From positions 69,401-133,400 of the forward strand of contig MFPT01000002.1 in the NCBI GenBank assembly GCA_001782805.1: a DNA stretch of 64,000 bases. Direction: 5' to 3'. This document shows positions 11,713 through 58,478 of the stretch, one piece after another. The notes under the pieces are model-generated. The model saw only the letters and a list, made by a program, of their open reading frames with translations. It did no database searches and had not been told where the DNA came from. Origin of the DNA: Candidatus Magasanikbacteria bacterium RIFCSPHIGHO2_01_FULL_41_23 (lineage in GTDB: Bacteria; Patescibacteriota; Patescibacteriia; Magasanikbacterales; UBA922). A program made the position numbers and the translations under genes. Position 1 is the stretch's first letter. Each line of letters opens with the position of its first letter.

Positions 11713-11824
11713 GTTTGCTTAAGACTTAGAAAGCTGAGTATAATGACTTGTTGAGAATGCATAATCCGTCAGACTATCAGTTGAACAAAAGGATATCGTC
11801 GAATTTTGCTTAAGAGTTAGAAAA
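11713..11824 (+). repeat. MITE-like promoter-bearing repeat, copy A (partly degenerate), upstream of glyA
   Basis: Shares the about 55-nt core gctgagtataatgacttgttgagaatgcataatccgtcagactatcagttgaa with copies B-D, in reverse complement. Flanked by direct repeats ttgcttaagaNttagaaa. Confidence 0.7.
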
Positions 11825-11849
11825 AATGAAGTTTATTTAAAAAATTTAT

Positions 11850-21625: not shown

Positions 21626-21812
21626 TCCTAAGTCTTAATCAAACTCCTTTTTCTAAGTCTTAATCAAACTTCACTGATCCTCTTTTTTTCAACTGATAGT
21701 CTAACGGATTATGCATTCTCAACAAGTTAGTATACTCAGCTTTCAGAAAAAGAGGATTCAGTTCCAGTTTGATTATTAGTATATTGGATGTTTCGCTGTT
21801 GCATATGTTGAA
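21626..21812 (-). repeat. MITE-like repeat, copy B (intact, about 28-bp terminal inverted repeats), upstream of ribH
   Basis: 21657-21778 is nearly identical to 55747-55862. TIRs are taatcaaacttcactgatcctcttttt / aaaaagaggattcagttccagtttgatta. The left end carries an 18-bp tandem duplication. Confidence 0.75.
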
Positions 21813-43165: not shown

Positions 43166-45952
43166 TTGCTCTATTATATAGAAACTAGTCAATTAACTCA
43201 AATTAAACTTGTGACTGATTTTACTCAAGTAGAGAAAATTCCACCCCAAAATCTGGAAGCCGAGATGTCGCTTTTGGGCGCGATTTTAATTGATAAAGAA
43301 GCTTTGCTTAAAATTGCGGATATTTTGGAACCGGATGATTTTTATAAACCCGCACATGCCGAAGTATATCAAGCCATTCTTGATCTGTATGCCAAAAGCG
43401 AGCCCGTGGATATTTTAACATTATCAAATCGTTTGGAAGAACGTGGAGTTTTGGAAAAAATCGGTGGCCGAAGTTTTGTCGTCAGTCTAGCCAACACTGT
43501 TCCCACGGCTTCGCATGTTAAACATTACGCGGATATTGTCGCCCGCAAAGCCACGTTACGCAAACTCATTGGCGCGGCCAGTGAAATTTCTCGTTTGGGT
43601 TTTACGGAAGATTCCGATGAAATTGAAATGCTCCTTGATAAAGCCCAACAGCATGTCTTTAGCGTAACGCAAAAACATATTAAACAAACCTTCACGCCCA
43701 TTCGCGGAATTTTAAGCGAAGCCTTTGATCGGATTGATGAATTGCATCGCGACAAAGGCAAATTGCGCGGCGTGCCCACCGGATTTCGGGAATTGGACAA
43801 TATCTTGGCCGGTTTGCAAAAATCCGATTTGATTATTTTAGCGGCGCGGCCATCGGTCGGAAAAACTTCACTCGCGCTCGACATTGCGCGTCACGTAGCG
43901 ATTCGCGAAAAAGTGCCCGTGGGAATTTTTTCTTTGGAAATGAGCAAAGAACAATTTGTGGATCGTCTGCTGTGTGCCGAAGCCGGCGTGGATTTATGGA
44001 AAATGCGCACAGGCAATCTTTCTGATCGGCCAGATAGTGATGATTTTCCGCGCATTGGTCATGCCATGGGTGTTTTGTCCGAAGCCCCCATTTATATAGA
44101 TGATTTTCCGGGCAACAATGTAATGCAAATTCGCACCAAAGCGCGTCGTCTCAAATCCGAACATGGTCTTGGTCTTATTATTATTGATTACATGCAGTTA
44201 ATGGAATCGCATAATAATAAATACTCGGAAAATCGTGTCCAAGAAGTTTCTGAAATGAGCCGTAATTTAAAAGGGATTGCGCGTGAACTAAATGTGCCGG
44301 TTTTGGCATTGTCGCAATTATCTCGTGCGGTGGAACAAACCAAACCAGCCATTCCCAAATTGTCGCACTTACGTGAATCAGGATGTTTAACCGGAGACAC
44401 GATTATCATTCGGGCTGATACTGGCGAACCAGTCCGGCTCATTGATATTGTCACCGGTAAGATTCCAACCCCTTTACCTATATTTGCCCTCGACGAGAAC
44501 TGGAAAATCTCCCCACAAATAATGACTAAAGCCTTTTCCTCTGGTCAAAAAAAGGTATTTGAAATGCGTTTGCGAAGCGGGCGCACCATTCGCGCCTCAG
44601 CCAATCATCCATTCCGTACACTTGGAGGCTGGACAAACTTAGAAGATTTATGTCCTGGTATGCGTATTGCAGTCCCTCGTGTTTTGACACCACAAAAACC
44701 CACCAATCTTATGAACTTGGATGAGCTCGCATTACTGGCACATCTCTTGGGCGACGGATGCACAGTACCACGACAGCCAATTCATTATACCAGTGCTGAT
44801 CCGGAAAATTTAGCGGTAGTAGAGCAAACCGCTATAAAATTATTTAACATAAAACCGCGTCGAGTCAAGCAAAAAAATTGGTGGCATGTGTATCTTCCTT
44901 CACCCTACCACCTCACTCATGGAAAACATCATCCCATTACTAACTGGTTTTCGCAGTTAGGTATCGGTCTACGACACTCTTATAAAAAGGAAATACCACT
45001 TCAAGTATTCCAATCAGACAGCTCCCATATCGCGCACTTCCTCCGCCATCTATGGGCCACTGACGGTAATATTTCCTGGAAATTTATACTAGGTAGAAAA
45101 CCAGCCGGAGCAATTTATTACTCTAGCACTAGCACGGTGTTGGCAAGACAAGTCCAGCATTTACTTACTCGTTTAGGTATATTCTCAACATTACGCCTCG
45201 TGCCGCAAGGCGATCATCGACCAGCGCACCAAGTTCATGTCCAAGGAAGTACCAATCAAAAAACATTTCTTTCAGTGGTTGGTTCGGCAGGCAGTCGTGG
45301 TGATATTGTACCGGCTATGCTTACCGCCCTTCAAGAAATAACAGCAAACCCAAACCGTGACACTATTCCTCACGAGATCTGGAATAGTACCATTGAAGAA
45401 GCGAGAACCGAAGCCAATATCAGTTGGAGAGAATTATACCGCCAACTAGACAATTCTTATGCTGGTACCGTTAAGCAAAATTCTGTGGGTAGAGAACGAC
45501 TCGGTCGAATCGCAGTGGCCCTCAAAAGCAAACCATTGCAACTACTCGCCGACTCTAGTATTTTTTGGGACGAAATTGAATCCATCGTATCTCAAGGTAT
45601 GGAAGAAGTGTACGATGCCACCGTACCCAGATTTCACAATTTTGTCGCCAATGACATTATTGTCCATAATAGTATCGAACAAGACGCGGATGTGGTATTA
45701 TTCATCTATCGCAAAGCCGCGGATCGCAATTATCGTTTGGAAGATATTCCGCCGGATGAACGTCATCTGGGAGAAATTCACGTGGCCAAACATCGCAATG
45801 GTCCCACTGGCATGGCTAAAGTTTTTTTTGATGAAACGCGCGCGAGTTATCGTAATTTAGATACGCGGTATGTTCCGCCAACAGGCGGAGGACAATCGCA
45901 TGCTCCAGCCAATCTACCCAAACCAGGATCAGTCAATGTGCCAAGTTTTTAA
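43166..45952 (+). CDS. dnaB: replicative DNA helicase DnaB, interrupted by an in-frame intein
   Basis: Conserved DnaB N-terminal domain, Walker A ARPSVGKTSLAL, Walker B IIIDYMQL. The helicase sequence ...HLRESG / SIEQDADVV... is split by a 429-aa insertion. Confidence 0.9.
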   Translation: MLYYIETSQLTQIKLVTDFTQVEKIPPQNLEAEMSLLGAILIDKEALLKIADILEPDDFYKPAHAEVYQAILDLYAKSEPVDILTLSNRLEERGVLEKIGGRSFVVSLANTVPTASHVKHYADIVARKATLRKLIGAASEISRLGFTEDSDEIEMLLDKAQQHVFSVTQKHIKQTFTPIRGILSEAFDRIDELHRDKGKLRGVPTGFRELDNILAGLQKSDLIILAARPSVGKTSLALDIARHVAIREKVPVGIFSLEMSKEQFVDRLLCAEAGVDLWKMRTGNLSDRPDSDDFPRIGHAMGVLSEAPIYIDDFPGNNVMQIRTKARRLKSEHGLGLIIIDYMQLMESHNNKYSENRVQEVSEMSRNLKGIARELNVPVLALSQLSRAVEQTKPAIPKLSHLRESGCLTGDTIIIRADTGEPVRLIDIVTGKIPTPLPIFALDENWKISPQIMTKAFSSGQKKVFEMRLRSGRTIRASANHPFRTLGGWTNLEDLCPGMRIAVPRVLTPQKPTNLMNLDELALLAHLLGDGCTVPRQPIHYTSADPENLAVVEQTAIKLFNIKPRRVKQKNWWHVYLPSPYHLTHGKHHPITNWFSQLGIGLRHSYKKEIPLQVFQSDSSHIAHFLRHLWATDGNISWKFILGRKPAGAIYYSSTSTVLARQVQHLLTRLGIFSTLRLVPQGDHRPAHQVHVQGSTNQKTFLSVVGSAGSRGDIVPAMLTALQEITANPNRDTIPHEIWNSTIEEARTEANISWRELYRQLDNSYAGTVKQNSVGRERLGRIAVALKSKPLQLLADSSIFWDEIESIVSQGMEEVYDATVPRFHNFVANDIIVHNSIEQDADVVLFIYRKAADRNYRLEDIPPDERHLGEIHVAKHRNGPTGMAKVFFDETRASYRNLDTRYVPPTGGGQSHAPANLPKPGSVNVPSF
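44384..45670 (+). mobile_element. DnaB intein with LAGLIDADG-type homing endonuclease domain
   Basis: Begins with Cys (CLTGDTII) and ends ...IVHN followed by Ser. LLAHLLGDGC is a LAGLIDADG block. Sits at the canonical DnaB intein site between RESG and SIEQDAD. 1287 nt and in frame. Confidence 0.85.
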
Positions 45953-47055: not shown

Positions 47056-47553
47056 TTATTGGTAACTTTTTACCGGAGCTGTTTTTGGCTGATTGAATTT
47101 CATCCCCCGTTTCATCTGTGGCCTAATTTTCATTTTTTCGCCCATTTTATTTTTCATTTCTTGCATAACAGTAAACCGCGCGTCAGCTTGAGCTTGGGTA
47201 ATATAACCCTTGTTTACCAAACTCTGCAATTCTAATTTAATTTTCGCTTCGGCCGCCGATTGCATTTTTGTTTTTAATTGTTCTTGCGTAATGCCTTTTT
47301 CCAATGCAATGTCTTGAATATTTTTTCCTTGCACCCAATATGTTTTCATTTCGTCAACCGAAATTCCCAGCAAAGACGCGTTTTGATTCATTTGTTCAGC
47401 CCATTTATCCGGGTCGGCCACACCTCCACCAAACCCTCTAAACCCGTGTAACCCTTTTGCTCCCATACCTGACGCGGAAACCGATCCGACTCCAATCAGA
47501 CCGGCAAGCACGAAGGCAGGAATAACCAAAAGATATTTTTTCTGAAACTTCAT
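47056..47553 (-). CDS. secreted LTXXQ-motif protein (Spy/CpxP-like periplasmic stress chaperone family)
   Basis: Signal peptide. ITQEQL and ITQAQA LTXXQ-like motifs. Downstream of the ECF sigma / anti-sigma pair on the same strand. Confidence 0.45.
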   Translation of the reverse strand: MKFQKKYLLVIPAFVLAGLIGVGSVSASGMGAKGLHGFRGFGGGVADPDKWAEQMNQNASLLGISVDEMKTYWVQGKNIQDIALEKGITQEQLKTKMQSAAEAKIKLELQSLVNKGYITQAQADARFTVMQEMKNKMGEKMKIRPQMKRGMKFNQPKTAPVKSYQ

Positions 47554-47611
47554 AGAAATAAAAGTTAATAAATTAATCAGCTGATATATTTAATACAAAT
47601 GATTTGATTTT

Positions 47612-48352
47612 TTATTTCACTTTTGGAACGAATTCCGGTATTGATCGGCGGATATGCGGCCGCAACACACGCAAATCCTTTGGCCGAGCCAGCTTAATAT
47701 GGCTGGCAAAAAATTCCACTCCTTGCCACTGTCCAACCGCGATAATAAAAACTCCCAGCTCTGGCTGGCGTAAATCGCGTCGCCAATTGACATTTGACGT
47801 GTTAACCATAATATCCGACCGTGGACTGCGCACAATTAAAATATTTTCCCTAACCGCAACCACTTGTCCGGCAATGCCTCTGCCGTGTTCGCCCAATCTA
47901 AAATGCATGAATGATTTCATGTATCGTTTGCTCGATATTTTTTCTCCCAAATTTGCGAAAGCAAAAATTGAACCACTGAAAAAAATTATCACCAGCACGA
48001 TAATGGACAATTTCCCAAACGAATACGCGTACGCACGTCCGGTCAAACTCAACAATCTGCCGGCCAAAAAAATCAAGAGAATGAGTGTAATAACGGGCTG
48101 AAACGGAAACGATTCCAGAAAAGCCCAAATACCCGAATTTCCAAATTCCAAATAATTTCGCGAGTCAGCGGAAACAAAATAAAATAATACAACGGTAAAT
48201 GCCAATGCCGCGAGCAAAACCGTTAAAACCACAGCGCTGCCCAAGCCTAATTTTTCCGACAAAAATAAATAGCGGGAACGAAGTTTTACTTTGCCGCTTT
48301 TAATATCAGCTATGATTATGTTCTCCAGATTGTGCATCTTTTTTTCTTCCAT
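47612..48352 (-). CDS. membrane protein, putative anti-sigma factor
   Basis: Immediately downstream of the ECF sigma gene (3-bp gap). Cytoplasmic N-terminus, several TM helices, C-terminal extracytoplasmic domain. Assignment is by position only. Confidence 0.4.
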   Translation of the reverse strand: MEEKKMHNLENIIIADIKSGKVKLRSRYLFLSEKLGLGSAVVLTVLLAALAFTVVLFYFVSADSRNYLEFGNSGIWAFLESFPFQPVITLILLIFLAGRLLSLTGRAYAYSFGKLSIIVLVIIFFSGSIFAFANLGEKISSKRYMKSFMHFRLGEHGRGIAGQVVAVRENILIVRSPRSDIMVNTSNVNWRRDLRQPELGVFIIAVGQWQGVEFFASHIKLARPKDLRVLRPHIRRSIPEFVPKVK

Positions 48353-48355
48353 ATA

Positions 48356-48907
48356 TTATTCCTGCATAATTATCTTGAGTTTTGTCTTGCCGCGAGCAAT
48401 CAGAGTCCCAACCGTGCTCACCGGCACATGCAAAATGTCACTGATTTCTTCGTATGACTTTTCTTCAAAAAAATAAAGAACAACTGGCTCGCGATATTTT
48501 TCTTTTAATTTTTGCAACGCGCGACGGATGCGTAAGGCTCCTTCTTTTTTATCTATGGAAATGCCCAGTTCCAAACGGTCATCAGCTATTTCCCATTCAC
48601 CTTCATCCAAGATCAAGGCCTCGCGCTTGAATTTTTTGCAATGATTAATGGCTTCATTATGCGCGATGCGGTAAATCCAGGATGAAAATGATCGATTGGC
48701 GTCAAAATCGAATAAATTACGATAGGCTTTAATGAATACATCCTGAAGAATATCCTCATTCGCGGTTTCACTTGTCGTAAATCGGCGGATATAACGAGTC
48801 AATTTGGCTTGATATCGTCTAATGATTTCACCATAAAGTTCGGATTCACCGTTTCGCACCAAAACTAATATTGCTTCGTCGCTCTGATTGTTGCTCGTTT
48901 CAGGCAT
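48356..48907 (-). CDS. RNA polymerase sigma-70 factor, ECF subfamily
   Basis: Region 2 (DVFIKAYRNLFDFD...FSSWIYRIAHNEAINHCKK) and region 4 HTH (SYEEISDILHVPVSTVGTLIARGK). Confidence 0.85.
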   Translation of the reverse strand: MPETSNNQSDEAILVLVRNGESELYGEIIRRYQAKLTRYIRRFTTSETANEDILQDVFIKAYRNLFDFDANRSFSSWIYRIAHNEAINHCKKFKREALILDEGEWEIADDRLELGISIDKKEGALRIRRALQKLKEKYREPVVLYFFEEKSYEEISDILHVPVSTVGTLIARGKTKLKIIMQE

Positions 48908-49052
48908 ATTCTATAGTACACTCCTTTGGCTGATTTATTTCAAATAAACTTAAAGAATCCATCCAAAAGAACCTATTCTTATTGACAAAAAATGATAAAA
49001 TAATTATTCTTACGAACAGTCTAGCGCAATCAACAGCGCTACGAGGTTAGAA

Positions 49053-49961
49053 ATGGACGGAATTCCGGTTTTGGACATGTCTGAGTTCGGGGCTCATCCC
49101 GAACAGGACAAGCGTATCGCCGACTTGATCGGCGAGAACGCGAGAACGCTCAGCTTCATGGCCATCACTGGCCACGGAGTCGAAAACTCGCTCATCAACG
49201 ACGCGTTCGAGGCCATGCGCCAGGTCTTTCAGACCGGCATGACCGAGACGGAACGTCTCCACTACGAGTTCCCCGAGATCGGGCGTCAGGTGGGCTACAC
49301 GCCACCCGACACCGAACAATCGGTGGGACACGCGCTCAAGAACCGCATGCGCTTCTGGCACGTCATGGATCCCAAGTGCGGAATCCGGAACGTGTTCCCC
49401 AGCGAGGTTCTGGAGTTCGAGCGTGTCATGCTGGATCTGCATGCTGCGCTCAAGGGATTCGCGGCCAAAGTGCTCCGAGCCGTGGCCATCCATCTCGGCC
49501 GCGACCCCGAGTTCTTCGTCCGCTGGATCGAGGATGGCGCGAACCTGCTCCGCCCCATCCACTACCCGGCCCTGAACGGCGATGAGAATGTGGAACGCTC
49601 GGGCTCTCACACCGACATCAACCTCATCACCATCCTCGCGCCGGCCACTGTTCCAGGTCTCCGAGTAATGGGACCGGACGGCCAGTGGATCGACGCCAAC
49701 AACCCGCCCGGCACGCTCATCGTCAACTTCGGGGACATGATGCACATGCACACGTTCGGCGAGTTGAAGACGACTCTCCACGAAGTGCACAATCCGGGAA
49801 CCGCGTGCCCGGATCGGTACTCCATCCCCATCTTCATCCACCCGAACGGTCGGCGCATGCTCGTGGGTACCCAAGCCTACCTGCTCCGTCGCCTTCGTCA
49901 GATCAAGCTCATCGGAGAGCTCCCGCCGAACCAGATCGACTACCAGGACATCGAGTCCTAG
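49053..49961 (+). CDS. 2-oxoglutarate/Fe(II)-dependent oxygenase (isopenicillin N synthase-like superfamily), GC-rich foreign gene
   Basis: HTD...H facial triad (SGSHTDINL ... HEVHNPG). About 62% GC against about 38% flanks. ORFs on the other strands of this region are composition artefacts. Confidence 0.7.
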   Translation: MDGIPVLDMSEFGAHPEQDKRIADLIGENARTLSFMAITGHGVENSLINDAFEAMRQVFQTGMTETERLHYEFPEIGRQVGYTPPDTEQSVGHALKNRMRFWHVMDPKCGIRNVFPSEVLEFERVMLDLHAALKGFAAKVLRAVAIHLGRDPEFFVRWIEDGANLLRPIHYPALNGDENVERSGSHTDINLITILAPATVPGLRVMGPDGQWIDANNPPGTLIVNFGDMMHMHTFGELKTTLHEVHNPGTACPDRYSIPIFIHPNGRRMLVGTQAYLLRRLRQIKLIGELPPNQIDYQDIES

Positions 49962-50089
49962 TAGCGCCCACCCCCCAATCCCACCAATCGGGCGACAACC
50001 AAAACTATGTCACCCAACCCTTATTTCTAAAGTTTGGAAATAGAGGTTGGAGGAAACGACATAGTTTTTGTTTTATTAAAATGTATTTA

Positions 50090-50190
50090 CTAAAATAAAA
50101 ATGGACTGGATATAACTTTTTTGGGCACGGAATTTATGACGTGATCCAGAAAAAGTTATGCAAGGAATTTTTATTTTAATTTCCTTAATG
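50090..50190. repeat. about 100-nt long-hairpin repeat element (copy 2), between the GC-rich oxygenase gene and rplU
   Basis: Same conserved ends as copy 1. Central stem differs but stays partly complementary (ataactttttt / aaaaagttat). Confidence 0.65.
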
Positions 50191-50197
50191 TATTATT

Positions 50198-50231
50198 AAA
50201 AAAATCCTCGTTTGATGCAAGGATTTTTTAT
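50198..50231 (-). terminator. Rho-independent terminator downstream of rplU
   Basis: aaaaaaatcctcg..caaggatttttt hairpin with flanking A/T runs, so possibly bidirectional. Confidence 0.5.
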
Positions 50232-50242
50232 TATATTTTATT

Positions 50243-50554
50243 TTAAACTTTGATAACTTTCACTTTGGTGAAATGCTGCCGATGACCAATCGTTCTCTTA
50301 TAACGAACTTTGCGTTTATATTTAACCACTAAAATTTTCTTAGCACGCCCTTGTTCCGCCACAATGGCCTCAACCGTAACACCCTCCAAATACGGAGCGC
50401 CAATTTTAACATCCGTCCCATCATCTTCAGCCGTCAGCATTACTTTATCAAAAATAATAATACCGTTAACTTCGGCCGGAAGTTTTTCCACTTTTAAGGC
50501 ATCGCCACTTTTAACCAAATATTGCTTACCACCTGTTTCAATAACTGCGAACAT
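50243..50554 (-). CDS. rplU: 50S ribosomal protein L21
   Basis: MFAVIETGGKQYLVKSGDALKVEKL is the canonical L21 N-terminus; 103 aa. Confidence 0.9.
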   Translation of the reverse strand: MFAVIETGGKQYLVKSGDALKVEKLPAEVNGIIIFDKVMLTAEDDGTDVKIGAPYLEGVTVEAIVAEQGRAKKILVVKYKRKVRYKRTIGHRQHFTKVKVIKV

Positions 50555-50628
50555 ATAAATAAATTAAGCCAAATAAATCTAAAATTAGGAATGAGCGGAT
50601 TATACGCAAATGCTTCAAAATTGTCAAG

Positions 50629-51108
50629 CTAAGGATCCCCAACAATTTCCAATCTATCTCCAATCTTCAAATCATATTTTTCAACCCATCCAGCCTCCAA
50701 TTCCAAAACCAAATTGGCTGACTTACGTGGAATATAACGTCGCAGTTCTGTTTCTTTAATATCTAGTTCAGTTGGAACATTGGGCGCAATATCCACCACT
50801 TCGCCGTTCAAAAACCACACGATATCAATGGGAAAAAGCGTATCGCGCATCACAAATCCGTATTTGTTGGGAACGGCAAACACAAATAACATTCCATCAT
50901 AAGGAGCAAGTGCTGTTCTGCCACCAAGACCTTTGTAATGCCGATACGGATTATCTGCCACCAAAACTTTCAGTGACGTATCTTTTAAAATTACCGTTGT
51001 CTTAGGCCAATAAAATTTATAAGCTTGGACACTAATAAAACCAATTAAAAAAATTACTACAATAATTTTGAAATGTCGAATTGAACGTTCTTTATTTATT
51101 TCTGACAT
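50629..51108 (-). CDS. DUF192 domain protein (membrane-anchored)
   Basis: N-terminal TM helix, then the DUF192 core (FPIDIVWFLNGEVVDI...). Confidence 0.6.
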   Translation of the reverse strand: MSEINKERSIRHFKIIVVIFLIGFISVQAYKFYWPKTTVILKDTSLKVLVADNPYRHYKGLGGRTALAPYDGMLFVFAVPNKYGFVMRDTLFPIDIVWFLNGEVVDIAPNVPTELDIKETELRRYIPRKSANLVLELEAGWVEKYDLKIGDRLEIVGDP

Positions 51109-51150
51109 ATTTCAATAATATTTACTCCAATTCATAAAAAAATAGTCTTT

Positions 51151-51330
51151 ACTCCCTCGTAATCAAACTCCGTTTTCTAAGTCTAAAGCAAAATTCAACG
51201 ATATCCTTTTGTTCAACTGATAGTCTAACGGATTATGCATTCTAAACAAGTCATTATACTCAGCTTTCAGCAAAAGTATATTCGTCTCCATTTTGCTTAT
51301 TAGTATATTGGATGTTTGGGTGTTGCATTA
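51151..51330 (-). repeat. MITE-like repeat, copy C (degenerate ends), upstream of DUF192 gene
   Basis: Same core as copy B (caactgatagtctaacggattatgcattctaaacaagtcattatactcagctttc) and the same downstream block attagtatattggatgttt. Confidence 0.7.
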
Positions 51331-51344
51331 GGTGTTGCCTTTGT

Positions 51345-51535
51345 GGGTAATTTCAGTAGTGGGTAATTTTATTTTTCAGTAATGTGTATGAGCATCCTTT
51401 CTACTGGCTTGGTTAGAGTAGATTAGATGTCAATAAAGCATAGACTGGGAGGGTAAAAGAATAGCGAGTTTTACTGAAAAAGAAAATTATCTACTACTGA
51501 AATTCATGTTGATTTAAATTGAGTTGATTTATTTT
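51345..51535. repeat. degenerate long-hairpin element upstream of MITE copy C
   Basis: Long-range inverted repeats tttcagtagt / actactgaaa and ttttcagtaatg / ttactgaaaa. Ends with ttttaatttcct, as in the other hairpin elements. Confidence 0.4.
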
Positions 51536-51542
51536 AATTTCC

Positions 51543-52586
51543 TCAAAGTATTTGGGATTTATTTTTATTCCGTTTTGACAAAAAAGTAGACAGGCCAAAC
51601 ATAATCGCGCCCAGAATCACAAAAGCCAACAATTTATACCGATTCGACAAAAACAACGCCGATAAACCAAACACCAAAGCGATGCTATACATTACCAGCA
51701 CCGCCTCACGTTGAGTTAGACCGGAATTTAATAATTTAAAATGCAAATGTTCACTGTCTCCGACAAAAATCGGCTTACCCTTATACCAGCGTTCAAAAAT
51801 TACCCGCGCCACATCCAAAGCCGGCAAACCCAAAACCAACAACGTTGTAATAATTTTGCTACCGGAAATAACCGCGATAATGGCCAACAAATAACCGGTC
51901 AATAAACTGCCGCCCTCACCCAAAAAAATTTTAGCCGGATGAAAATTCCAAACCAAAAATCCCATACATGAACCGGCCAGAAGCAATGCCAAAAAACTAA
52001 CCTCGGGCTGAAACCATGCCGACTGTTGCGTTAAAAAATAAATAATAATCGCGCCAATCGCCACCATCCCTGATACCAAACCATCCAAACCATCCAAAAA
52101 TTTGGTCGTAAACATCATGCCCATTAACCAAAAAAATAAAATAATATCAGCCCCGGCAAACCATTGACTTAGATTGATTGAACCACCAAGCGGATTAGTG
52201 ATTGCTGTCGGTCCCATACCAACATACACCAAAATTAAACTGGCGATAATTGGACAAATTATTTGCACACTGGGTGGCAATTGATATTTATCATCAAACC
52301 AACCGCCAATCATCAGAATGCTTGCGCCAAGCCACACTGCCACAATATGATAAAAAGGAATTTCAACAAAAATAACCAAACGAATGACGATTGACAAAAA
52401 TAACAAACCAAAAAAAGTCAGATAAATTACCCAACCACCACCCAAAGGAATAGCGCGATCATGAATTTTTCTCCCTTGTTTTTGCGGTCGATCGATTATG
52501 CCAAAACGTCTCATTGCCCAAGCCACAAACGGAGACAAAATACAGGCCACAATCCCAGCCATCCACAAAGTTGCTAAACGAATCAT
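51543..52586 (-). CDS. glycosyltransferase family 4 polyprenyl-phosphate sugar-1-phosphate transferase (WecA/TagO/MraY family)
   Basis: 10-11 TM helices. DRPQKQGRKIHDRAIPLGGG resembles the WecA N-terminal motif. DDKYQ-type cytoplasmic loops. Confidence 0.7.
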   Translation of the reverse strand: MIRLATLWMAGIVACILSPFVAWAMRRFGIIDRPQKQGRKIHDRAIPLGGGWVIYLTFFGLLFLSIVIRLVIFVEIPFYHIVAVWLGASILMIGGWFDDKYQLPPSVQIICPIIASLILVYVGMGPTAITNPLGGSINLSQWFAGADIILFFWLMGMMFTTKFLDGLDGLVSGMVAIGAIIIYFLTQQSAWFQPEVSFLALLLAGSCMGFLVWNFHPAKIFLGEGGSLLTGYLLAIIAVISGSKIITTLLVLGLPALDVARVIFERWYKGKPIFVGDSEHLHFKLLNSGLTQREAVLVMYSIALVFGLSALFLSNRYKLLAFVILGAIMFGLSTFLSKRNKNKSQIL

Positions 52587-52609
52587 ATTATTTTTTTGAT
52601 ACTATCATT

Positions 52610-55369
52610 TCAAGTCGGCAAAGGCAATCCAGCGCGTTCAATTGAAATTTTTGCATTTTCTCCAACAACAATGATATCACGTCGTTGCAATTTCCCACTC
52701 AAAATTAATTCAGCCAATTGGTCTTCCACATGTTCTTGAATCGCGCGACGCATCGGACGCGCGCCAAATTCCGGATCATATCCAATTTGGGACAATGCCT
52801 CGAGTCCGGCATCTTCCACGCGCAAATCAATCCCTCGCGCTTCCAAATCTTTGGCCACGCGCTTTAACATAAAGCCGGCAATTTGTTTAATTTCTTCCCG
52901 ATTCAATGGCGTAAATACTATAATACCATCAAAGCGATTCAAAAATTCCGGCCGATAATAATTTTTTAATTCCGAGCGTAATAATTTTTCCCGAATCTGA
53001 TCAGTCGGTGTTCCCGCCCGCACTGCTTCTTGAATAAAAGTAGTTCCCGCATTTGATGTCGCGATAATAATCGTATTGGTAAAATCAATCACGCGACCAA
53101 TACTATCAGTCAAACGTCCGTCATCAAAGACTTGCAAAAATAAATTCAACACATTGGGATCGGCTTTTTCCAACTCATCCAACAAAATTAAAGAAAATGG
53201 TTTTTCACGCACAGCTTCGGTCAAAAGTCCGGTGCCTTGTTGACCAATCTGACCAATCAAACGATAAATTCCGCTTTTGTCCTGATATTCACTCATGTCC
53301 ACGCGAATCATTCGGTCTTCGCGGCCAAAATAGACATCAGCGATTGTTTTGGCCAATTCAGTTTTACCAACTCCGGTCGGACCTAAAAATAAAAAATTCG
53401 CGATTGGCCGGCCTTTGGAACGAATTTCCGCTCGCGCTCGACGAAGTGCGCTTGCCACCATAACCACGGCTTCGTTTTGTCCCACCACCCGTTTATGCAT
53501 TTCGGTTTCCAGACGCAACAGTTTACTGGATTCATCTTCGCTAATACTCGTTGCGGGAATCCCGGTTTTTTGTCCAATCACAGCCGCTACATCATCGGTC
53601 GTAACCAATGGTTTTGCCGGATGTTTGCTATGAGCCAAACTCGCGCTTTCGGAAAATAAAGTCAATGCACTTTCGGGCAAATACTGATCATGCAAATAAC
53701 GATTGGCATGTTGAACACAACGCGCCAGCGCATCATAGGAAAAAAATACATTATGCTTATACTCCACCTGTCCGGCCTTTGATTCCAAAACTTGAATCGC
53801 TTGATTTTCATCCATTATGGAAATTTCCACTTTGGCAAAAATAGAGCTTAATTCAGAATTGGCAATATGTTTGTGATAGGCATCAGGTTGAGTCGTGGCC
53901 AAAGTTAAAAAATGGCCGCCACTTAAATATTCAGCCAAAGTTCCGGCCACATTCATACCTGATTCTTGTTGCGCATCTTCCCCACCGATCAAATCAGTGA
54001 CATTATTGATTACCAAAATAATATTCCGCGCGCGCGCCAGCTCATTCATAATTTTAATCAATCGTTCCTGCGCTCCGGAAACAGTCGTCCCGGCCAAAAG
54101 CGATGAAGTAGAAACTTGGACGAGTCGTTTATCTTTTAAACGATCCGGCACACGATCTTGCACCATACGTTCGGCAATCCCTTCAATGATACTCATTTTC
54201 CCCACTCCGGGAGAGCCCACCAAAAGCACACTCTGTTGTCCACCTTCAATGATTCTAAAAATTGCGTCAATTTCATTATCGCGCGCCACGCACGGATACA
54301 AATATCCCAATTGTGCTTTAAGCGTTAAATCCTCGCTAAAACTATTTAAAAACGGAGTAGCCACCGCAGTCATGGCTCGGTCAATCCCATGAGTATCCCG
54401 ATGCGCCGAGGCTTGGCGTAACGCCAAATAATCTTCGCGTAATTGTTCACGAATTCGTACCCAAGCCACGACATTGTCCAGTTTAACACTGTCAATATTC
54501 AAATCATATAAAATTTCTTGCAAAGCCGGCCACGCCCGAACCGTTGCCAAAAGCAAAGCGCTTTCCCGGACATGCGAATCATGAGTTTTGGCCGAAATTT
54601 CGTACGCCGCAAATAAAATTTGCTCAAAAATATCGGACATGACCGGCTCAATAGTATTTTTTGTTTTTGTTATTTCAAAAGTAGAAACTCTGACTTTAAC
54701 TGTTTCCGGTGAAATCCCCAGACGAATAAACATGTTACCCACCATTGGTTGATCGATTAAAGCCAAAAATAGATGTTTTGGTTCAATCATTGCTGACTTT
54801 TCTGTCACTGCCAACTTAAAAGCGGTATCAAGTGTGTGTTTGGCAGTGACGGTAAACGTTTCCGAAATATTTAATGATCTAACTTTTGGTATTTTTTTTA
54901 ATTGCTCCCAATCTAATTGGACAATTTCTGGCGCTTCATCGTTGGTATAATTTCGTAATAAGGCAATTGGCTTATTTGATTGAACAATCCGATACCACAC
55001 ATAACTGAACGCGCCAATGCCTAACCAAAAAAATGATTTGGTCCACAAATGTCGCCGCGACCAAAAATCAAATGAAAATAAATCCAACCAAAAATCCATT
55101 CGATAAATATCCCAAAAAAATAAACCAACAAATCCCAGACCAAAAATCAAAGCGGTCATGATTTGAAAAGCATTTAAAAAATCTCGACCGCGACGAAGCG
55201 CGATATCATAAGCTGACAATGGCCAAGTCCAATACCAAAATTCATTATACAAAAAAAATCCACGCCCACGTCCCAGACAAAACGAACATTTGAATAAACC
55301 TTTAAGACCGGTTGCACTACAGTTCGCACACCGGATAACATTAAATTTTTCGTTTTGAGAAAATTGCAT
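52610..55369 (-). CDS. membrane-anchored ClpB/ClpC-like AAA+ ATPase with N-terminal DnaJ-type zinc finger
   Basis: N-terminal CxxC..CxxCxGxG, about 3 TM helices, two Clp_N repeats. D1 has GSPGVGKMS (Lys followed by Met) and VINN in place of DE. D2 is canonical (GPTGVGKTELAK, LLDELEKA, GARPMRR). No IGF loop and no long M-domain. Confidence 0.75.
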   Translation of the reverse strand: MQFSQNEKFNVIRCANCSATGLKGLFKCSFCLGRGRGFFLYNEFWYWTWPLSAYDIALRRGRDFLNAFQIMTALIFGLGFVGLFFWDIYRMDFWLDLFSFDFWSRRHLWTKSFFWLGIGAFSYVWYRIVQSNKPIALLRNYTNDEAPEIVQLDWEQLKKIPKVRSLNISETFTVTAKHTLDTAFKLAVTEKSAMIEPKHLFLALIDQPMVGNMFIRLGISPETVKVRVSTFEITKTKNTIEPVMSDIFEQILFAAYEISAKTHDSHVRESALLLATVRAWPALQEILYDLNIDSVKLDNVVAWVRIREQLREDYLALRQASAHRDTHGIDRAMTAVATPFLNSFSEDLTLKAQLGYLYPCVARDNEIDAIFRIIEGGQQSVLLVGSPGVGKMSIIEGIAERMVQDRVPDRLKDKRLVQVSTSSLLAGTTVSGAQERLIKIMNELARARNIILVINNVTDLIGGEDAQQESGMNVAGTLAEYLSGGHFLTLATTQPDAYHKHIANSELSSIFAKVEISIMDENQAIQVLESKAGQVEYKHNVFFSYDALARCVQHANRYLHDQYLPESALTLFSESASLAHSKHPAKPLVTTDDVAAVIGQKTGIPATSISEDESSKLLRLETEMHKRVVGQNEAVVMVASALRRARAEIRSKGRPIANFLFLGPTGVGKTELAKTIADVYFGREDRMIRVDMSEYQDKSGIYRLIGQIGQQGTGLLTEAVREKPFSLILLDELEKADPNVLNLFLQVFDDGRLTDSIGRVIDFTNTIIIATSNAGTTFIQEAVRAGTPTDQIREKLLRSELKNYYRPEFLNRFDGIIVFTPLNREEIKQIAGFMLKRVAKDLEARGIDLRVEDAGLEALSQIGYDPEFGARPMRRAIQEHVEDQLAELILSGKLQRRDIIVVGENAKISIERAGLPLPT

Positions 55370-55370
55370 A

Positions 55371-55730
55371 TTAGGGACTGAAGCTGGAAATGATCAGCAT
55401 ATAAATCACAAATACGGGCATAACTAACCACAATAAAAATAAAACCAAAACTACAAAAAACCAAACTAATAAACATAACGTGCGGCCAATCACATTGGTC
55501 AAACGCACGATAAAACTGATCAGTCTTCCCTGCCAATCATGCTGACCAAACATCGGCACAAAAACATTTTTGAGCCACAATCTTGGAGCCAATAAATTAT
55601 TGGCCGCAGACAACAAATTTAGACACGCGCGCAAGGTGTGCATCATGCCGCTGGTATACCACCAAAAGGGAAAATAAAAAATATCGAAAATAAATTCGAT
55701 GAATAATCTTTGTAAAACTAGAAGATGCAT
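55371..55730 (-). CDS. small membrane protein (hypothetical)
   Basis: 119 aa, about 3 TM helices. Ends 1 bp before the Clp ATPase gene, so probably co-transcribed. Confidence 0.4.
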   Translation of the reverse strand: MHLLVLQRLFIEFIFDIFYFPFWWYTSGMMHTLRACLNLLSAANNLLAPRLWLKNVFVPMFGQHDWQGRLISFIVRLTNVIGRTLCLLVWFFVVLVLFLLWLVMPVFVIYMLIISSFSP

Positions 55731-55746
55731 ACGTTTTTACTAACTC

Positions 55747-55900
55747 GTAATCAAACTTCACTGATCCTCTTTTTTTCAACTGATAGTCTAACGGATTATG
55801 CATTCTCAGTAAGTCAATATACTCAGCTTTCAGAAAAAGAGGATTCAGTTCCAGTTTGATTCAAAGATTAATTGAATGTTTTGGTGTTGCACTCGTGAGA
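55747..55900 (-). repeat. MITE-like repeat, copy D (intact), upstream of membrane-protein/Clp operon
   Basis: Nearly identical to copy B over about 115 nt, including both terminal inverted repeats. Confidence 0.75.
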
Positions 55901-55927
55901 TTGGTATTAGTATACCATTTTTTAAAA

Positions 55928-55963
55928 ATAAAAAAATCCCGAAATGATCGGGACTTTATTTTA
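55928..55963 (-). terminator. Rho-independent terminator after ftsL-like gene
   Basis: tcccga aatga tcggga stem-loop flanked by A/T runs. Confidence 0.5.
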
Positions 55964-56302
55964 TCGTTTGGCGACGATCGCGGATTCAACCGACGCATAT
56001 TCAACCTGATCAACCGGTACATATCCTTTGTCAGCCAATTCATCATTCAAGCGCGTAATTGATTGTGCTTCGGCCAAAAAAACATCCAATTGGCGATTGT
56101 CAACTTGAAGTGTTTTGATTTGCTTGTTTAATTGACTAACGGCATATCCACTGGCAGTAACCTGATTGGTTTGAAACACATAAAAAAAAGCGGCGGCCAC
56201 AACCACACTAATAAATGCCACGCGAACAGGCAATTTTTGAGTAATGGATTCAATTTTTAACCACCAAGAATCTGGAGTGTGCCGACGAGAGTGGTAATAC
56301 AT
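55961..56302 (-). CDS. ftsL: FtsL-like cell division protein
   Basis: Single TM helix plus coiled coil. Sits downstream of rsmH in the mraZ-rsmH-ftsL order. Confidence 0.5.
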   Translation of the reverse strand: MYYHSRRHTPDSWWLKIESITQKLPVRVAFISVVVAAAFFYVFQTNQVTASGYAVSQLNKQIKTLQVDNRQLDVFLAEAQSITRLNDELADKGYVPVDQVEYASVESAIVAKR

Positions 56303-56331
56303 AGTGACAGGCTCGTATTAACAATTAATAA

Positions 56332-57237
56332 TTAATTTTTTTGGATAACACGAAGTTTGGCTGATCGCGCGCGCGGATTTGCTTTATATTCTTCTTCGCC
56401 ACATACAATTGGTTTTTTGGTAATAATCGTTGCGCTATTTTTTTGTTCCAAATCTTTAAAATAATGTTTGACTATTCTGTCTTCCAACGAATGAAAAGTG
56501 ATAACTGCCAATCGTCCGCCTGAAGCTAGGACTTTTATGGCTTGGGGTAAAACTTCTTCTATGACTTCCAATTCCCGATTAACCGCGATGCGCAAAGCCT
56601 GAAATATTTTTGTGGCCGGATGTAGTCCTCCAATCCAAGGAATTTCTTTATCGGTTTTTAATTTTTTCCGATATGTTGCTAAAATTATTTCCGTCAATTG
56701 TCCGGTTTGTTTAATTGGCTCGCCTTGGCGATACGAAATTATCGCGCTCACTATTTCTTTACTTAAATTTTCTTCGCCATATTCCCGAAAAATTTGTTCC
56801 AGTTCATTAGCATCAAATGTATTAACAATTTCCGTGGCTGTAATTTCTTCCCTACCACTATACGTCATGTTCAATGGTTCATCAGTCAAAAAACTGAATC
56901 CTCGACCGCGCTCGGCGAATTGCGGACTGGACCAACCCAGATCAAGCAGAATTCCCTTAATTTCACCAATCGGATTTTCCGCGACAATTTTTTCCAGCTC
57001 GGAAAAATTTCCCCGCACAAACGTAACTCTGTTCGCGAACGAATACAGATATTGCTTGGCGCGTAACAATGATTCCGGATCCGCGTCAATCGCCAATAAT
57101 TGCCCGTTTGGCGCAGTCGCTTCCAGAATTTTTTCACTATGTCCGCCATCACCAACTGTACAATCAATGACATTATCATTAGACTTAAGTTGTAAAGATT
57201 CCAAAACCTCATTCAGTAATACCGGAATATGGCGCAT
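56332..57237 (-). CDS. rsmH: 16S rRNA (cytosine1402-N4)-methyltransferase
   Basis: MRHIPVLLNEVLE start and DCTVGDGGHS SAM motif. Confidence 0.9.
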   Translation of the reverse strand: MRHIPVLLNEVLESLQLKSNDNVIDCTVGDGGHSEKILEATAPNGQLLAIDADPESLLRAKQYLYSFANRVTFVRGNFSELEKIVAENPIGEIKGILLDLGWSSPQFAERGRGFSFLTDEPLNMTYSGREEITATEIVNTFDANELEQIFREYGEENLSKEIVSAIISYRQGEPIKQTGQLTEIILATYRKKLKTDKEIPWIGGLHPATKIFQALRIAVNRELEVIEEVLPQAIKVLASGGRLAVITFHSLEDRIVKHYFKDLEQKNSATIITKKPIVCGEEEYKANPRARSAKLRVIQKN

Positions 57238-57246
57238 ACAATTATT

Positions 57247-57678
57247 CTAAACTCCCAATTGACCCATCTGCTCGGCAATCGTGGTACTTTCGGCTTCCGT
57301 GCGTTTGGTGTATTCACTCCATTTGCCCGCGTCCCACAGTTCCAGCCGATTGTACAAACCAGCTACGACCACATCTTTTTTGAGCGTGGCGTACGAACGC
57401 AAATACTCGGGCAAAATTATGCGACCTTGTTTATCCACTTCCACATCCATAGCACCAGCCAGCATTAAACGCGCGAACGCTCGTGTGTTGGCTTGAGCAA
57501 ATGGCAGATTGGCCAATTTTTCTGCCAGTTTTGCCCACTCAACTTTGGTGTACAAAAACAAGCAGTTATCCAAACCACGCGTGACAAACGCTCCTTTGGC
57601 CAAAGCATTCCGAAATTTTTTCGGAACTGACAGCCGACCCTTATCATCGAGGCTATGTGAATATTCGCCGATAAACAT
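57247..57678 (-). CDS. mraZ: transcriptional regulator MraZ
   Basis: MFIGEYSHSLDDKGRLSVP start and two MraZ repeats. Confidence 0.9.
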   Translation of the reverse strand: MFIGEYSHSLDDKGRLSVPKKFRNALAKGAFVTRGLDNCLFLYTKVEWAKLAEKLANLPFAQANTRAFARLMLAGAMDVEVDKQGRIILPEYLRSYATLKKDVVVAGLYNRLELWDAGKWSEYTKRTEAESTTIAEQMGQLGV

Positions 57679-57810
57679 ATTTGGGGATTAATTAGGAATA
57701 CAAGCATTTTTCCCACTTTTCCCCACTTGTTTCCATTATATACCACAATAAAACACACAACAATCCCTTTATCCCCTATTTATCCACACCTCGACTCACT
57801 CCGTTCGCTC

Positions 57811-57893
57811 GGGTGGAAACAAAAAATCACCCGACGCCAATTAAAATTCCAATTCATTGGAGTTTTAAGGAGGTTGCGGGTGGTTTTTTGACT
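57811..57893. repeat. about 80-bp direct repeat R1 (hairpin-forming), left flank of NYN / GC-rich-ORF cassette
   Basis: aaaaaatcacccgacgcc ... aggagg..cgggtggtttttt is homologous to 59056-59131. Confidence 0.6.
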
Positions 57894-57989
57894 TTATACT
57901 TTTTATTGTTATAATTAATGTATAGGAGGGAGTCAAAATTATTTTTTGTAACTCCTTTGACGGAGTTTTTATTTTTGATTAAAAAATTT

Positions 57990-58478
57990 ATGATACAAAA
58001 AGGAGGGAATAATTTTGCGTTTATTGATAGTCAAAATGTTTATCAAGGTACTAAAGAACTTGGTTGGCGTTTAGATTGGCATCGATTCAGGATATATTTA
58101 CGAGAAAAATATGAAGTCAGCCGAGCGTATTTATTTTTAGGTTATATTCCAAAAAATGAAAAAATGTATAAATGGCTGGAAAATGCCGACTTTGTTTTAT
58201 GTTTCAAAAAAGTAACTAATGTACACGGTGAAATAAAAGGAAATGTTGATGTTAATTTAACATTGAAGGCAATTCTGGAGAAAGATAATTATGACCAAGC
58301 AATTTTAGTAACGAGTGATGGAGATTTCTATCCGTTAGTTGAATATCTTACAAGCATTAATAAACTTTACACAATTCTGAGTCCTTGCGAAACAACTTGT
58401 TCAAAATTACTAAAAGAATCTGCGAAAAAAAGAATTTATTTTATGCAGAGATTAAAAGATAAAATTGGTCAAAAATGA
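57990..58478 (+). CDS. NYN domain (LabA/PIN-like) protein
   Basis: FAFIDSQNVY...VDVNLTL...ILVTSDGDFYPLV are the NYN acidic motifs. Start at the internal ATG. About 30% GC. Confidence 0.6.
   Translation: MIQKGGNNFAFIDSQNVYQGTKELGWRLDWHRFRIYLREKYEVSRAYLFLGYIPKNEKMYKWLENADFVLCFKKVTNVHGEIKGNVDVNLTLKAILEKDNYDQAILVTSDGDFYPLVEYLTSINKLYTILSPCETTCSKLLKESAKKRIYFMQRLKDKIGQK

Follow-up and report, generated by a model that had tools for sequence, protein, structure and literature searches.

Introduction

The Clp/Hsp100 proteins are textbook soluble threading machines: they carry tyrosine pore loops, have two active rings, and work with partners such as ClpP or DnaK. FtsH and Msp1/ATAD1 are membrane-anchored AAA+ hexamers that extract membrane proteins. 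Here we describe a gene for a Clp/Hsp100-like protein (referred to below as the ATPase), together with the gene for a 119-amino-acid (aa) protein (p119) directly upstream of it, in a 64,000-nucleotide stretch of DNA from Candidatus Magasanikbacteria bacterium RIFCSPHIGHO2_01_FULL_41_23 (the window; contig MFPT01000002.1, positions 69,401 to 133,400). All coordinates are positions in the window and refer to its minus strand unless stated otherwise.

The branch to which the ATPase belongs is predicted to be membrane anchored and to have a single active ring; the gripping tyrosines of both rings and the two known partner interfaces have been lost, and an obligate small membrane partner has been gained. 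It occurs widely in Patescibacteria, a group in which little is understood of the envelope or of division, and in one large clade the ATPase gene sits between ftsL and the gene for a WecA-like transferase. A first-pass annotation, made from the sequence alone, had described the protein as a membrane-anchored unfoldase with a DnaJ-type zinc finger and a catalytically degenerate first AAA+ module. Our comparisons support the prediction of a membrane-tethered class I Clp/Hsp100 protein with a catalytically dead first module (D1), without a ClpP-docking loop, and without an M-domain. The finding is real, conserved, and mechanistically puzzling.

Results

Identity and domain organization of the ATPase

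The open reading frame (ORF) of the ATPase runs uninterrupted over 52610..55369 and encodes 919 aa; it was characterized by Pfam, PDB alignment, homologs, an AlphaFold2 (AF2) model, and Foldseek. The product is 100% identical to the public "hypothetical protein A2821_00605" (Candidatus Magasanikbacteria bacterium RIFCSPHIGHO2_01_F...), and the identical 919-aa protein is present on 15 to 23 independent public contigs. A frameshift or a sequencing error, which the first-pass annotation had named as a possible source of the unusual D1 motifs, is thus excluded, as is an error of assembly; the conservation of those motifs, described below, speaks to the same point.

Pfam matched Clp_N at aa 183 to 227 (26.2 bits; cut-off, 20.7) and AAA and AAA_16 at approximately aa 360 to 405. 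Matches to AAA_lid_9 (aa 521 to 615; 40.2 bits), AAA_2 (aa 654 to 814; 168.6 bits), and ClpB_D2-small (aa 822 to 901; 85.9 bits) were all above the gathering score. This order, Clp_N followed by D1 with AAA_lid_9 and then by an AAA_2 second module (D2) with ClpB_D2-small, is that of the class I Clp/Hsp100 superfamily. The NCBIfam models for ClpB, ClpA, ClpG, ClpK, and ClpV also matched, all far under their curated cut-offs. The ClpB model (TIGR03346) scored 546.9 bits against a cut-off of 1232.1, and the ClpA model (TIGR02639) scored 463.9 bits against a cut-off of 993, aligning in a single stretch from aa 175 to 897. By sequence, the closest solved structures are Staphylococcus aureus ClpC, Bacillus subtilis ClpC, and Escherichia coli ClpB. 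The AF2 model has a predicted local distance difference test score (pLDDT) of 77.8, and its best Foldseek matches are ClpC and ClpB (E of 1e-45 to 1e-55). The full domain order is a Cys4 zinc ribbon, a hairpin of two transmembrane (TM) helices, a linker of ~40 aa, Clp_N, D1, and D2. Pfam found no protease domain in the protein.

Members of the family

A search of 5.8 billion proteins yielded 120 full-length homologs of the ATPase with 53 to 71% identity (the close homologs); those with organism names are almost all Magasanikbacteria or Patescibacteria. For the wider family, an exhaustive HMMER search with aa 1 to 600 against 1.84 billion representatives of 50%-identity clusters gave 378 matches at E<=1e-30, and most of the best 150 align from approximately residue 5 to 15 onward. 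Motif counts for the wider family cover 102 or 103 full-length representatives. Its named members are "Patescibacteria group," Parcubacteria, and Uhrbacteria, and they carry the generic title "ATP-dependent Clp protease ATP-binding subunit ClpA/ClpC," a public name that is misleading for this family. Full-text searching of the literature found no description of this Patescibacteria Clp/Hsp100 family; on inspection, a match in the Lipocone paper had no bearing on it. Together, these comparisons suggest that the ATPase belongs to a large, undescribed subfamily of class I Clp/Hsp100 proteins in the Patescibacteria (candidate phyla radiation).

Some records carry other names. Many GTDB genome records with a Patescibacteria-type locus are titled "uncultured Gammaproteobacteria bacterium" (L004, L006, L012, L020, and others), and one homolog is labeled "Candidatus Kapabacteria." These labels look like placeholders or wrong taxonomy.

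Catalytic motifs and pore loop of D1

Motifs were compared using an alignment with S. aureus ClpC, and their coordinates were checked by translation. The D1 module (aa 345 to 588; 53606..54337) is predicted to be noncatalytic from the ClpC alignment and from family statistics. Its Walker A motif, GSPGVGKMS (54191-54217), aligns with GEPGVGKTA of ClpC, and its Walker B motif, ILVINN (54002-54019), aligns with ILFIDE, so that both substitutions read by the first-pass annotation hold. Two further losses, both missed by that annotation, make D1 more degenerate than it had stated. The D1 pore loop, AGTTVSGAQER (54062-54094), aligns with AGTKYRGEFEER of ClpC and has Val in place of the pore-loop Tyr (KYR to TVS). 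At the former Arg-finger site, ELSSIFAKV (53828-53854), ELSSIFA stands against ALERRFQ of ClpC, and the two arginines are replaced (RR to SI). Where a competent D1 would have GK[T/S], hhhhDE, and Arg fingers, the ATPase thus has GKM, NN, and SI, and the same is true across the clade.

In 111 of the 120 close homologs, Met comes directly after the Lys of Walker A. The Walker B positions read NN, KN, HN, DN, and similar; DE was found in none of the 120 and in only 1 of 103 wider-family representatives (P0211; table inspected by eye). By this motif, orthologs with a normal D1, which the first-pass annotation had said would lower confidence in the degeneracy, are nearly absent. The pore position in the close homologs is V, I, T, A, L, or M and is never aromatic, and none of the 223 sequences of the close and wider sets together has an aromatic residue there. 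The RR fingers survive in nine wider-family representatives. Mean identity within the clade is 63% for D1, 77% for D2, and 40% for the N-domain. Since D1 still averages 63% identity, it is not a decaying domain, and since its degeneracy is conserved across a large Patescibacteria family, that degeneracy is a selected feature and not an error. We conclude that D1 is a conserved pseudo-ATPase domain under purifying selection.

ATPase motifs and pore loop of D2

The ATPase motifs of D2 (aa 589 to 905; 52655..53605) are intact by Pfam, the ClpC alignment, and family statistics. Walker A (GPTGVGKTE; 53357-53383), Walker B (LILLDE; 53174-53191), sensor 1 (TSN; 53045-53068), the Arg finger (NRFD; 52925-52951), and sensor 2 (GARPMRRA; 52742-52768) are all canonical. 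The KT, DE, sensor 1 Asn, Arg finger, and sensor 2 Arg are present in all 120 close homologs; the first four are kept in 100 to 103 of the 103 wider-family representatives. The first-pass annotation had called D2 fully canonical, and this is correct for the Walker motifs, the sensors, and the Arg finger. It is not correct for the pore loop, where the GYVG motif is replaced by GQIGQQGTG (53228-53254), which has no Tyr. The pore 1 region of the ATPase reads RLIGQIGQQGTGLLTE, which is four residues shorter than in ClpC and contains no aromatic residue. Hence, neither ring has its aromatic pore motif: TVS stands in place of KYR in D1, and GQIGQQGTG stands in place of GYVG in D2. The D2' loop is retained in the ATPase as SEYQDKS, whose ClpB counterpart we take to be EFMEKHS, and this loop might still touch a substrate.

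The departure in the D2 pore loop matters for the proposed unfoldase because the equivalent residues of ClpB clamp the substrate. In ClpB, Y251 and Y653/V654 grip the substrate, Y653/V654 clamp its backbone, and the Y653A mutation is more severe than Y251A (PMC6546751). The D2 pore loop of the close homologs has 8 residues, with the consensus GQPGQQGTG, and is aromatic in none of the 120. In the wider family, its length ranges from 12 residues down to 3 to 8, and an aromatic loop (of the GAPPGY/F type or other) survives in 12 of 102 representatives. We take 12 residues to be the ancestral length. From this distribution we infer that D1 was already weakened, and the D2 pore loop still intact, when the family began and that most lineages, including the present one, then deleted the aromatic motif. 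In the present clade, a 4-residue deletion would have removed the aromatic-hydrophobic motif of D2, leaving the conserved polar loop GQPGQQGTG. The only active ring has no aromatic pore loop in any clade member or in ~90% of the wider family, which makes the term "unfoldase" questionable.

Partner interfaces

Neither of the known partner interfaces was found, as the first-pass annotation had stated for both. There is no M-domain: in the ClpC alignment, D1 leads to D2 within a few residues, and nothing matches ClpC residues 411 to 470. The same holds family-wide: ~270 aa separate the Walker A motif of D1 from that of D2 in 117 of 120 close homologs and in 95 of 102 representatives. At the ClpP-docking (IGF/VGF) loop of ClpC, the alignment has a gap, and no [IV]G[FL] tripeptide occurs in aa 773 to 806 (52952-53053). 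An IGF-like tripeptide is present in only 1 of 120 close homologs and 2 of 102 representatives.

N-terminal zinc motif, membrane anchor, and N-domain

The N terminus carries a Cys4 zinc-ribbon motif at aa 14 to 35 (CANCSATGLKGLFKCSFCLGRG; 55265..55330), in a part of the protein that AF2 models as beta rich. Its pattern, C14xxC17-x10-C28xxC31xG33xG35, is the CxxC...CxxCxGxG arrangement noted earlier, and the four cysteines are kept in 83 of 120 close homologs and 62 of 102 cluster representatives. The zinc ribbon is absent from about one-third of sequences, partly through truncated gene calls and elsewhere by true loss of the cysteines (P0091). Designation of the motif as a DnaJ-type zinc finger is justified at the motif level and not at the profile level. 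The family consensus N terminus, CDTCKGSGYVGFRKCSECKGMS, gave a weak match to DnaJ_CXXCXGXG (PF00684; E of 0.0014; 19.2 bits; cut-off, 32.7), and the N terminus of the ATPase itself gave no match to this model at E<=10. With only two CxxC motifs, the ATPase can form one zinc center, whereas the PF00684 domain has two centers and four CxxCxGxG repeats.

Topology was assessed from hydropathy, both of the protein and averaged over the 120 close homologs, and from the AF2 model. AF2 places short beta strands at aa 12 to 47, a long helix at aa 53 to 90, a short helix at aa 100 to 104, and a helix at aa 110 to 131. TM helix 1 (aa 67 to 90; 55100..55171) was identified from hydropathy of the protein and the family alignment and lies within the long AF2 helix. 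TM helix 2 (aa 110 to 131; 54977..55042) coincides in hydropathy and AF2. By both methods, an outside loop of ~19 aa (55043-55099), rich in aromatic and acidic residues, lies between them. A membrane anchor had been proposed, and these two predicted hydrophobic helices support it. The proposed number of about three TM helices does not stand, and we rejected a three-TM topology. An Arg-rich cytoplasmic segment precedes TM helix 1, and basic residues follow TM helix 2. The body of the ATPase is necessarily cytoplasmic; therefore, the anchor is predicted to be an N-in/C-in 2-TM hairpin, and the zinc ribbon is predicted to be cytoplasmic too. The first-pass annotation had suggested asking whether the N-terminal extension is conserved among orthologs. 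The anchor is conserved, with at least one predicted TM segment within the first 200 aa of every representative of at least 840 aa; the four cysteines are conserved less widely, as stated above.

The N-domain (aa 173 to 323; 54401..54853) is of the Clp_N type by Pfam; the ClpA model aligns with it from aa 175, and AF2 builds it as eight helices with a pLDDT of ~90. Two Clp_N repeats had been proposed. The first has a Pfam match; the second has none and is backed by the ClpA alignment and the AF2 helices. Between the N-domain and D1 lies a linker, GIDRAMTAVATPFLNSFSEDL (aa 324 to 344; 54338-54400), which, with a mean clade identity of 77%, ranks with the best-conserved parts of the protein. AF2 modeled this linker at very low confidence (pLDDT of 43 to 50). 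It is a candidate interaction or regulatory segment.

The 119-aa partner protein

The p119 gene (55371..55730) stops 1 nucleotide (nt) before the ATPase ATG. Both p119 and all of its homologs are annotated as "hypothetical." No known family was matched in Pfam, NCBIfam, or PADLOC, and no fold match for the p119 model was found in the PDB at E<=0.001 (best Foldseek E, 3.9). Invariant residues cluster in PxWWY(T/S)xG and LWLKNxFVPMFGQxDWQGRxISFxxR. AF2 models p119 with a pLDDT of 87.7 as two very long antiparallel helices (aa 2 to 47 and 66 to 117) joined by a conserved loop, and this invariant loop lies at the nonmembrane end of the helical hairpin. We predict that p119 spans the membrane as a hairpin of two TM helices whose conserved tip is cytoplasmic. 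The hydrophobic halves toward the N and C termini would be embedded in the bilayer, and the amphipathic halves, which bear Arg/Lys, would serve as a stalk holding the loop in the cytoplasm. The loop would thereby be placed where the N-domain and zinc ribbon of the ATPase should be.

To survey loci, we scanned GTDB species genomes with an alignment of the N-terminal half of the ATPase; 160 genomes had a relative, and 80 loci were examined. In 79 of the 80, the gene immediately upstream of the ATPase gene encodes a p119 homolog; the remaining locus has no upstream DNA. The gap between the two genes has a median of ~1 nt, and 62 of 79 gaps are at most 20 nt, small overlaps included. A distant set consisted of five members with 27 to 35% identity in the N-terminal half, from Parcubacteria, Uhrbacteria, and unclassified Patescibacteria. 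All five have a p119 homolog immediately upstream (HMM E of 1e-23 to 1e-36), so a p119 homolog adjoins the ATPase gene in 84 of 85 related loci overall. The first-pass annotation had listed the 119-aa protein as a cotranscribed neighbor. The adjacency is real, and the description is incomplete, since p119 is the one universal partner of the ATPase.

Genomic neighborhood

The gene order on the minus strand is mraZ, rsmH, ftsL-like gene, terminator-like hairpin, repeat, p119, ATPase, transferase (GT4), repeat, DUF192 gene, and rplU. The upstream genes are of the division and cell wall (dcw) type (block at 55961..57678) and comprise mraZ (57247-57678), rsmH (56332-57237), and an ftsL-like gene with a weak FtsL_2 match (55961-56302). 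Directly after the ftsL-like gene is a terminator-like hairpin of 10 pairs followed by a T run (55933..55957). On the downstream side, the GT4 gene (51543..52586) encodes a 347-aa polyprenyl-phosphate sugar-1-phosphate transferase (Pfam Glycos_transf_4). It is followed by the gene for a DUF192 protein with an N-terminal TM segment (50629..51108), a frequent downstream neighbor, and then by rplU (50243-50554). GT4 scored 83.3 bits with the NCBIfam WecA model (cut-off, 326) and 47.8 bits with the MraY model (cut-off, 192), below both cut-offs. It appears to be closer to WecA/TagO than to MraY, and its assignment is secure only at the level of the Glycos_transf_4 superfamily.

The GT4 gene follows the ATPase stop codon at a distance of 23 nt. 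Because the gaps are 1 nt and 23 nt, a single p119-ATPase-GT4 transcript is plausible, and the adjacency of the ATPase gene to the 119-aa and WecA-family genes, as first described, is compatible with one. An extended -10-like box, TGnTATACT, lies ~15 nt downstream of the terminator-like hairpin. Given the hairpin and the box, the p119/ATPase/GT4 unit may be transcribed apart from mraZ-rsmH-ftsL.

Across the 80 loci, the upstream genes include mraZ in 70, rsmH in 73, and ftsL in 50, and the downstream genes include GT4 in 67, DUF192 in 65, and rplU in 63. GT4 does not adjoin the ATPase gene in 13 of the 80 loci or in 4 of the 5 distant loci; GT4 and DUF192 follow the ATPase gene in one distant Parcubacteria locus (L084). 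Genes of the dcw type are near the pair in only 1 of the 5 distant loci. There, tgt (tRNA-guanine transglycosylase) is the more common upstream neighbor, and it is usually found upstream of the pair in distant members (L084, L085, L087, and L088). In Uhrbacteria, the p119/ATPase pair is separated from the ftsL-like gene by tgt. Because only p119 stays with the ATPase gene in distant loci, we conclude that the two form the invariant unit and that the dcw/GT4 association is a clade-level feature.

Membership of the locus in an anti-phage defense system was considered and rejected. PADLOC defense-system models gave only generic AAA-domain matches for the ATPase and none for p119, GT4, or the DUF192 protein, and the synteny is of a housekeeping type.

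The upstream repeat

Between the ftsL-like and p119 genes is a repeat copy (55735..55891), a 157-bp imperfect palindrome that the first-pass annotation had named copy D of a miniature inverted-repeat transposable element (MITE). A second copy, 79% identical to it, lies between the GT4 and DUF192 genes (51173..51327). The window contains a third copy at 21648-21803 and a truncated one on the plus strand at 11729-11826. The four copies have 79 to 90% identity, an invariant 55-nt core, and an internal imperfect palindrome. Each lies immediately 5' of a gene in the same orientation (the p119 gene, ribH, the DUF192 gene, and glyA), and three end in a Shine-Dalgarno-like AAAAAGGAG. Their stem arms vary between copies in a roughly compensatory manner, and the copy at 55735..55891 folds into a long imperfect hairpin (-41 kcal/mol; z of -3.5). 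The repeat is absent from the corresponding intergenic regions of relatives, and for this reason we rejected a conserved 5' leader RNA as an account of it. No Rfam match to a riboswitch or other known RNA was found in 49900-58000. These features fit a lineage-specific, mobile or amplifying, MITE-like or repetitive extragenic palindromic (REP)-like intergenic element.

The unit had been described as driven from this repeat copy. The repeat is real; the driving role is not borne out, since no sigma-70 consensus promoter was found inside 55735..55891. The TGnTATACT box and the terminator-like hairpin are both upstream of it.

Other features of the window

On the plus strand, a 928-aa ORF (43166-45952) encodes a DnaB replicative helicase with an intein that carries a LAGLIDADG homing-endonuclease domain (Pfam). 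A relative at 59% identity has an intein-free DnaB of 481 aa in the syntenic position. On the minus strand, 47056-48907 holds a gene for an extracytoplasmic function (ECF)-type sigma factor (48356-48907), followed by ORFs of 246 and 165 aa that have no Pfam match; these could encode an anti-sigma factor and an accessory protein. A 2-oxoglutarate-Fe(II) oxygenase ORF (49053-49961, plus strand) lies in a stretch (48001-50000) with a G+C content of ~0.50, compared with ~0.40 in the rest of the window, and may have been horizontally acquired.

Discussion

The likeliest function of the ATPase, in our view, is that of a stand-alone, D2-driven membrane remodeling or extraction ATPase that works with p119; we give this reading about an even chance. 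Any particular client is much less likely to be correct than this general statement. The ATPase would be a hexamer suspended from the cytoplasmic side of the membrane, in which its twelve TM helices would anchor it; the zinc ribbon, N-domain, and D1 ring would be the parts closest to the bilayer. D1 would be a non-hydrolyzing scaffold ring, either nucleotide independent or ATP binding only, and D2 would be the sole motor. NSF D2 and PEX1/PEX6 D1 are precedents for such scaffold rings. The ATPase would act without the ClpP protease and without substrates from DnaK. As adaptor, as regulator, or as the client itself, p119 would present its cytoplasmic loop to the N-domain or zinc ribbon. ATP would be used to remodel or pull a specific membrane-embedded client; the gene neighborhood in the Magasanikbacteria clade suggests that this may be a protein of division or of envelope synthesis. 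Extraction or remodeling of a membrane client seems most natural because the entry face is predicted to point at the membrane, as in FtsH and Msp1. Since the pore tyrosines are lost yet the replacement loop is conserved, the data suggest short-range, specialized remodeling over processive general unfolding. By analogy, the loss in both loops may argue for a specialized client or for a bind-and-release mode, as proposed for Torsins. A role in membrane quality control or envelope biogenesis, as first proposed, is a reasonable hypothesis.

Several observations count against a remodeling or extraction ATPase of this kind. With no aromatic pore loop in either ring, pulling of polypeptides may be inefficient, and "extraction" may be the wrong term. 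The dcw/GT4 neighborhood is not kept in the most distant members, and in genomes that are small and stable, conserved gene order says little about function. Nor can the core mechanism require the zinc ribbon, which about one-third of sequences lack.

The gene could be an artifact or be decaying, its D1 substitutions being due to faulty sequencing or assembly or to the decay of a pseudogene; only the unusual motifs themselves would speak for this reading. The identical protein on many independent contigs, the sharing of the substitutions by 120 close and ~100 distant homologs with intact reading frames, and the D1 and D2 identities within the clade refute it, and we give it practically no credence. 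The loss of pore aromatics weighs against the main proposal of the first-pass annotation, a general membrane-protein quality-control unfoldase or disaggregase that, like FtsH or ClpB, threads damaged proteins processively. Such a machine would account for the class I Hsp100 fold with an active D2, for the membrane anchor, and for an N-terminal motif that resembles the zinc finger with which DnaJ binds non-native proteins, and a minority of distant members do keep GAPPGY/F in D2. It would have to work, however, without a D1 pore aromatic, which is found nowhere in the family, and without a D2 aromatic, which is found nowhere in the present clade; it would also have neither an M-domain for coupling to Hsp70 nor a ClpP loop for degradation. 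An obligate, sequence-conserved small partner also points to a specific task and not a general one. We consider general quality control unlikely.

If the ATPase does not thread at all, it may instead be an ATP-dependent switch or assembly factor that binds and releases a p119-containing membrane complex. The Torsins are membrane-associated Clp/Hsp100 relatives that lack aromatic pore loops and need membrane cofactors (PMC5425593), and the ATPase likewise has no aromatics in either pore loop, a conserved replacement loop in their stead, and a universal small membrane partner. Unlike a Torsin, the ATPase has a D2 with an Arg finger of its own and a full set of catalytic motifs; the two-ring translocase layout, the N-domain, and the D2' loop are all retained, and some family members keep a GYxG-type loop. 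A non-translocating switch thus has a modest chance of being correct. The genomic setting suggests yet another role, that of a dedicated division or envelope factor, in the dcw slot after ftsL, controlling the WecA-like GT4 or the FtsL-containing divisome. The order mraZ-rsmH-ftsL-p119-ATPase-GT4-DUF192 is kept in most of the 80 Magasanikbacteria-level genomes, and GT4 and DUF192 recur in the distant Parcubacteria genome. Against this stand the loci in which GT4 does not adjoin, the absence of dcw genes from 4 of the 5 distant loci, and the more frequent tgt upstream; such a dedicated factor is, we think, quite unlikely. As a long shot, the ATPase and p119 might form the core of a new Patescibacteria membrane machine, whose Gln-rich polar loops move or remodel something other than unfolded hydrophobic polypeptide. 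Candidate substrates would be a lipid-linked glycan or glycosylated envelope precursor made by the adjacent WecA-like transferase, or cargo pulled inward through the membrane of these cells, which depend on a host. A non-polypeptide or import machine, if true, would mean that Clp/Hsp100 motors can handle a new class of substrate or act in a new direction. Characterizing the protein could reveal to what extent the Hsp100 scaffold lends itself to new uses and could identify a lineage-specific envelope or division factor.

With ClpA, ClpC, and ClpB, the ATPase shares Clp_N, two AAA+ modules, AAA_lid_9, and ClpB_D2-small, and its D2 is 40 to 50% identical to those of ClpC and ClpB. Its domain order without an M-domain is that of ClpA, with which it aligns in a single stretch. 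Unlike all three, it carries a zinc ribbon at its N terminus and a 2-TM anchor, its D1 is predicted to be dead, and it scores under every curated cut-off; it has no pore-loop Tyr in D1 and, within the present clade, none in D2. The absence of an M-domain separates it from ClpB and ClpC, and the absence of a ClpP loop separates it from ClpA and ClpC. A Cys4 zinc motif at the N terminus of a Clp ATPase recalls the zinc-binding domains of ClpE and ClpX, and the family consensus matches the CxxCxGxG spacing of the DnaJ Cys-rich domain. The ATPase differs from all of these in having one zinc center, with TM helices after the motif.

In FtsH and Msp1/ATAD1, as predicted here, an N-terminal TM anchor sets the substrate-entry face against the cytoplasmic side of the membrane, and FtsH also has two TM helices per subunit. 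These proteins differ in that they have a single AAA ring and aromatic pore loops and are not Hsp100 relatives; FtsH, in addition, has a fused protease. NSF and PEX1/PEX6 provide the likeness of one ring as scaffold and the other as motor; they are soluble proteins of another AAA clade, and their active ring has aromatic pore loops. Plasmodium PTEX HSP101, which is among the PDB matches of the ATPase, and chloroplast Hsp93/ClpC-Tic are likewise Hsp100 rings at a membrane with dedicated membrane proteins. They are soluble and docked to a channel, with canonical D1, D2, and pore loops, whereas the N-terminal anchor of the ATPase would orient its entry side, and not its exit side, to the membrane. 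Torsins with LAP1/LULL1 are Clp/Hsp100 related and membrane associated, lack aromatic pore loops, and have membrane-protein cofactors (PMC5425593). They differ in being single-ring proteins of the eukaryotic endoplasmic reticulum lumen without an Arg finger of their own, whereas the ATPase has a D2 Arg finger and a second, apparently dead ring. Set beside these systems, the branch described here is not categorically new; it appears to be a strongly derived branch of the Clp/Hsp100 proteins with a new obligate partner.

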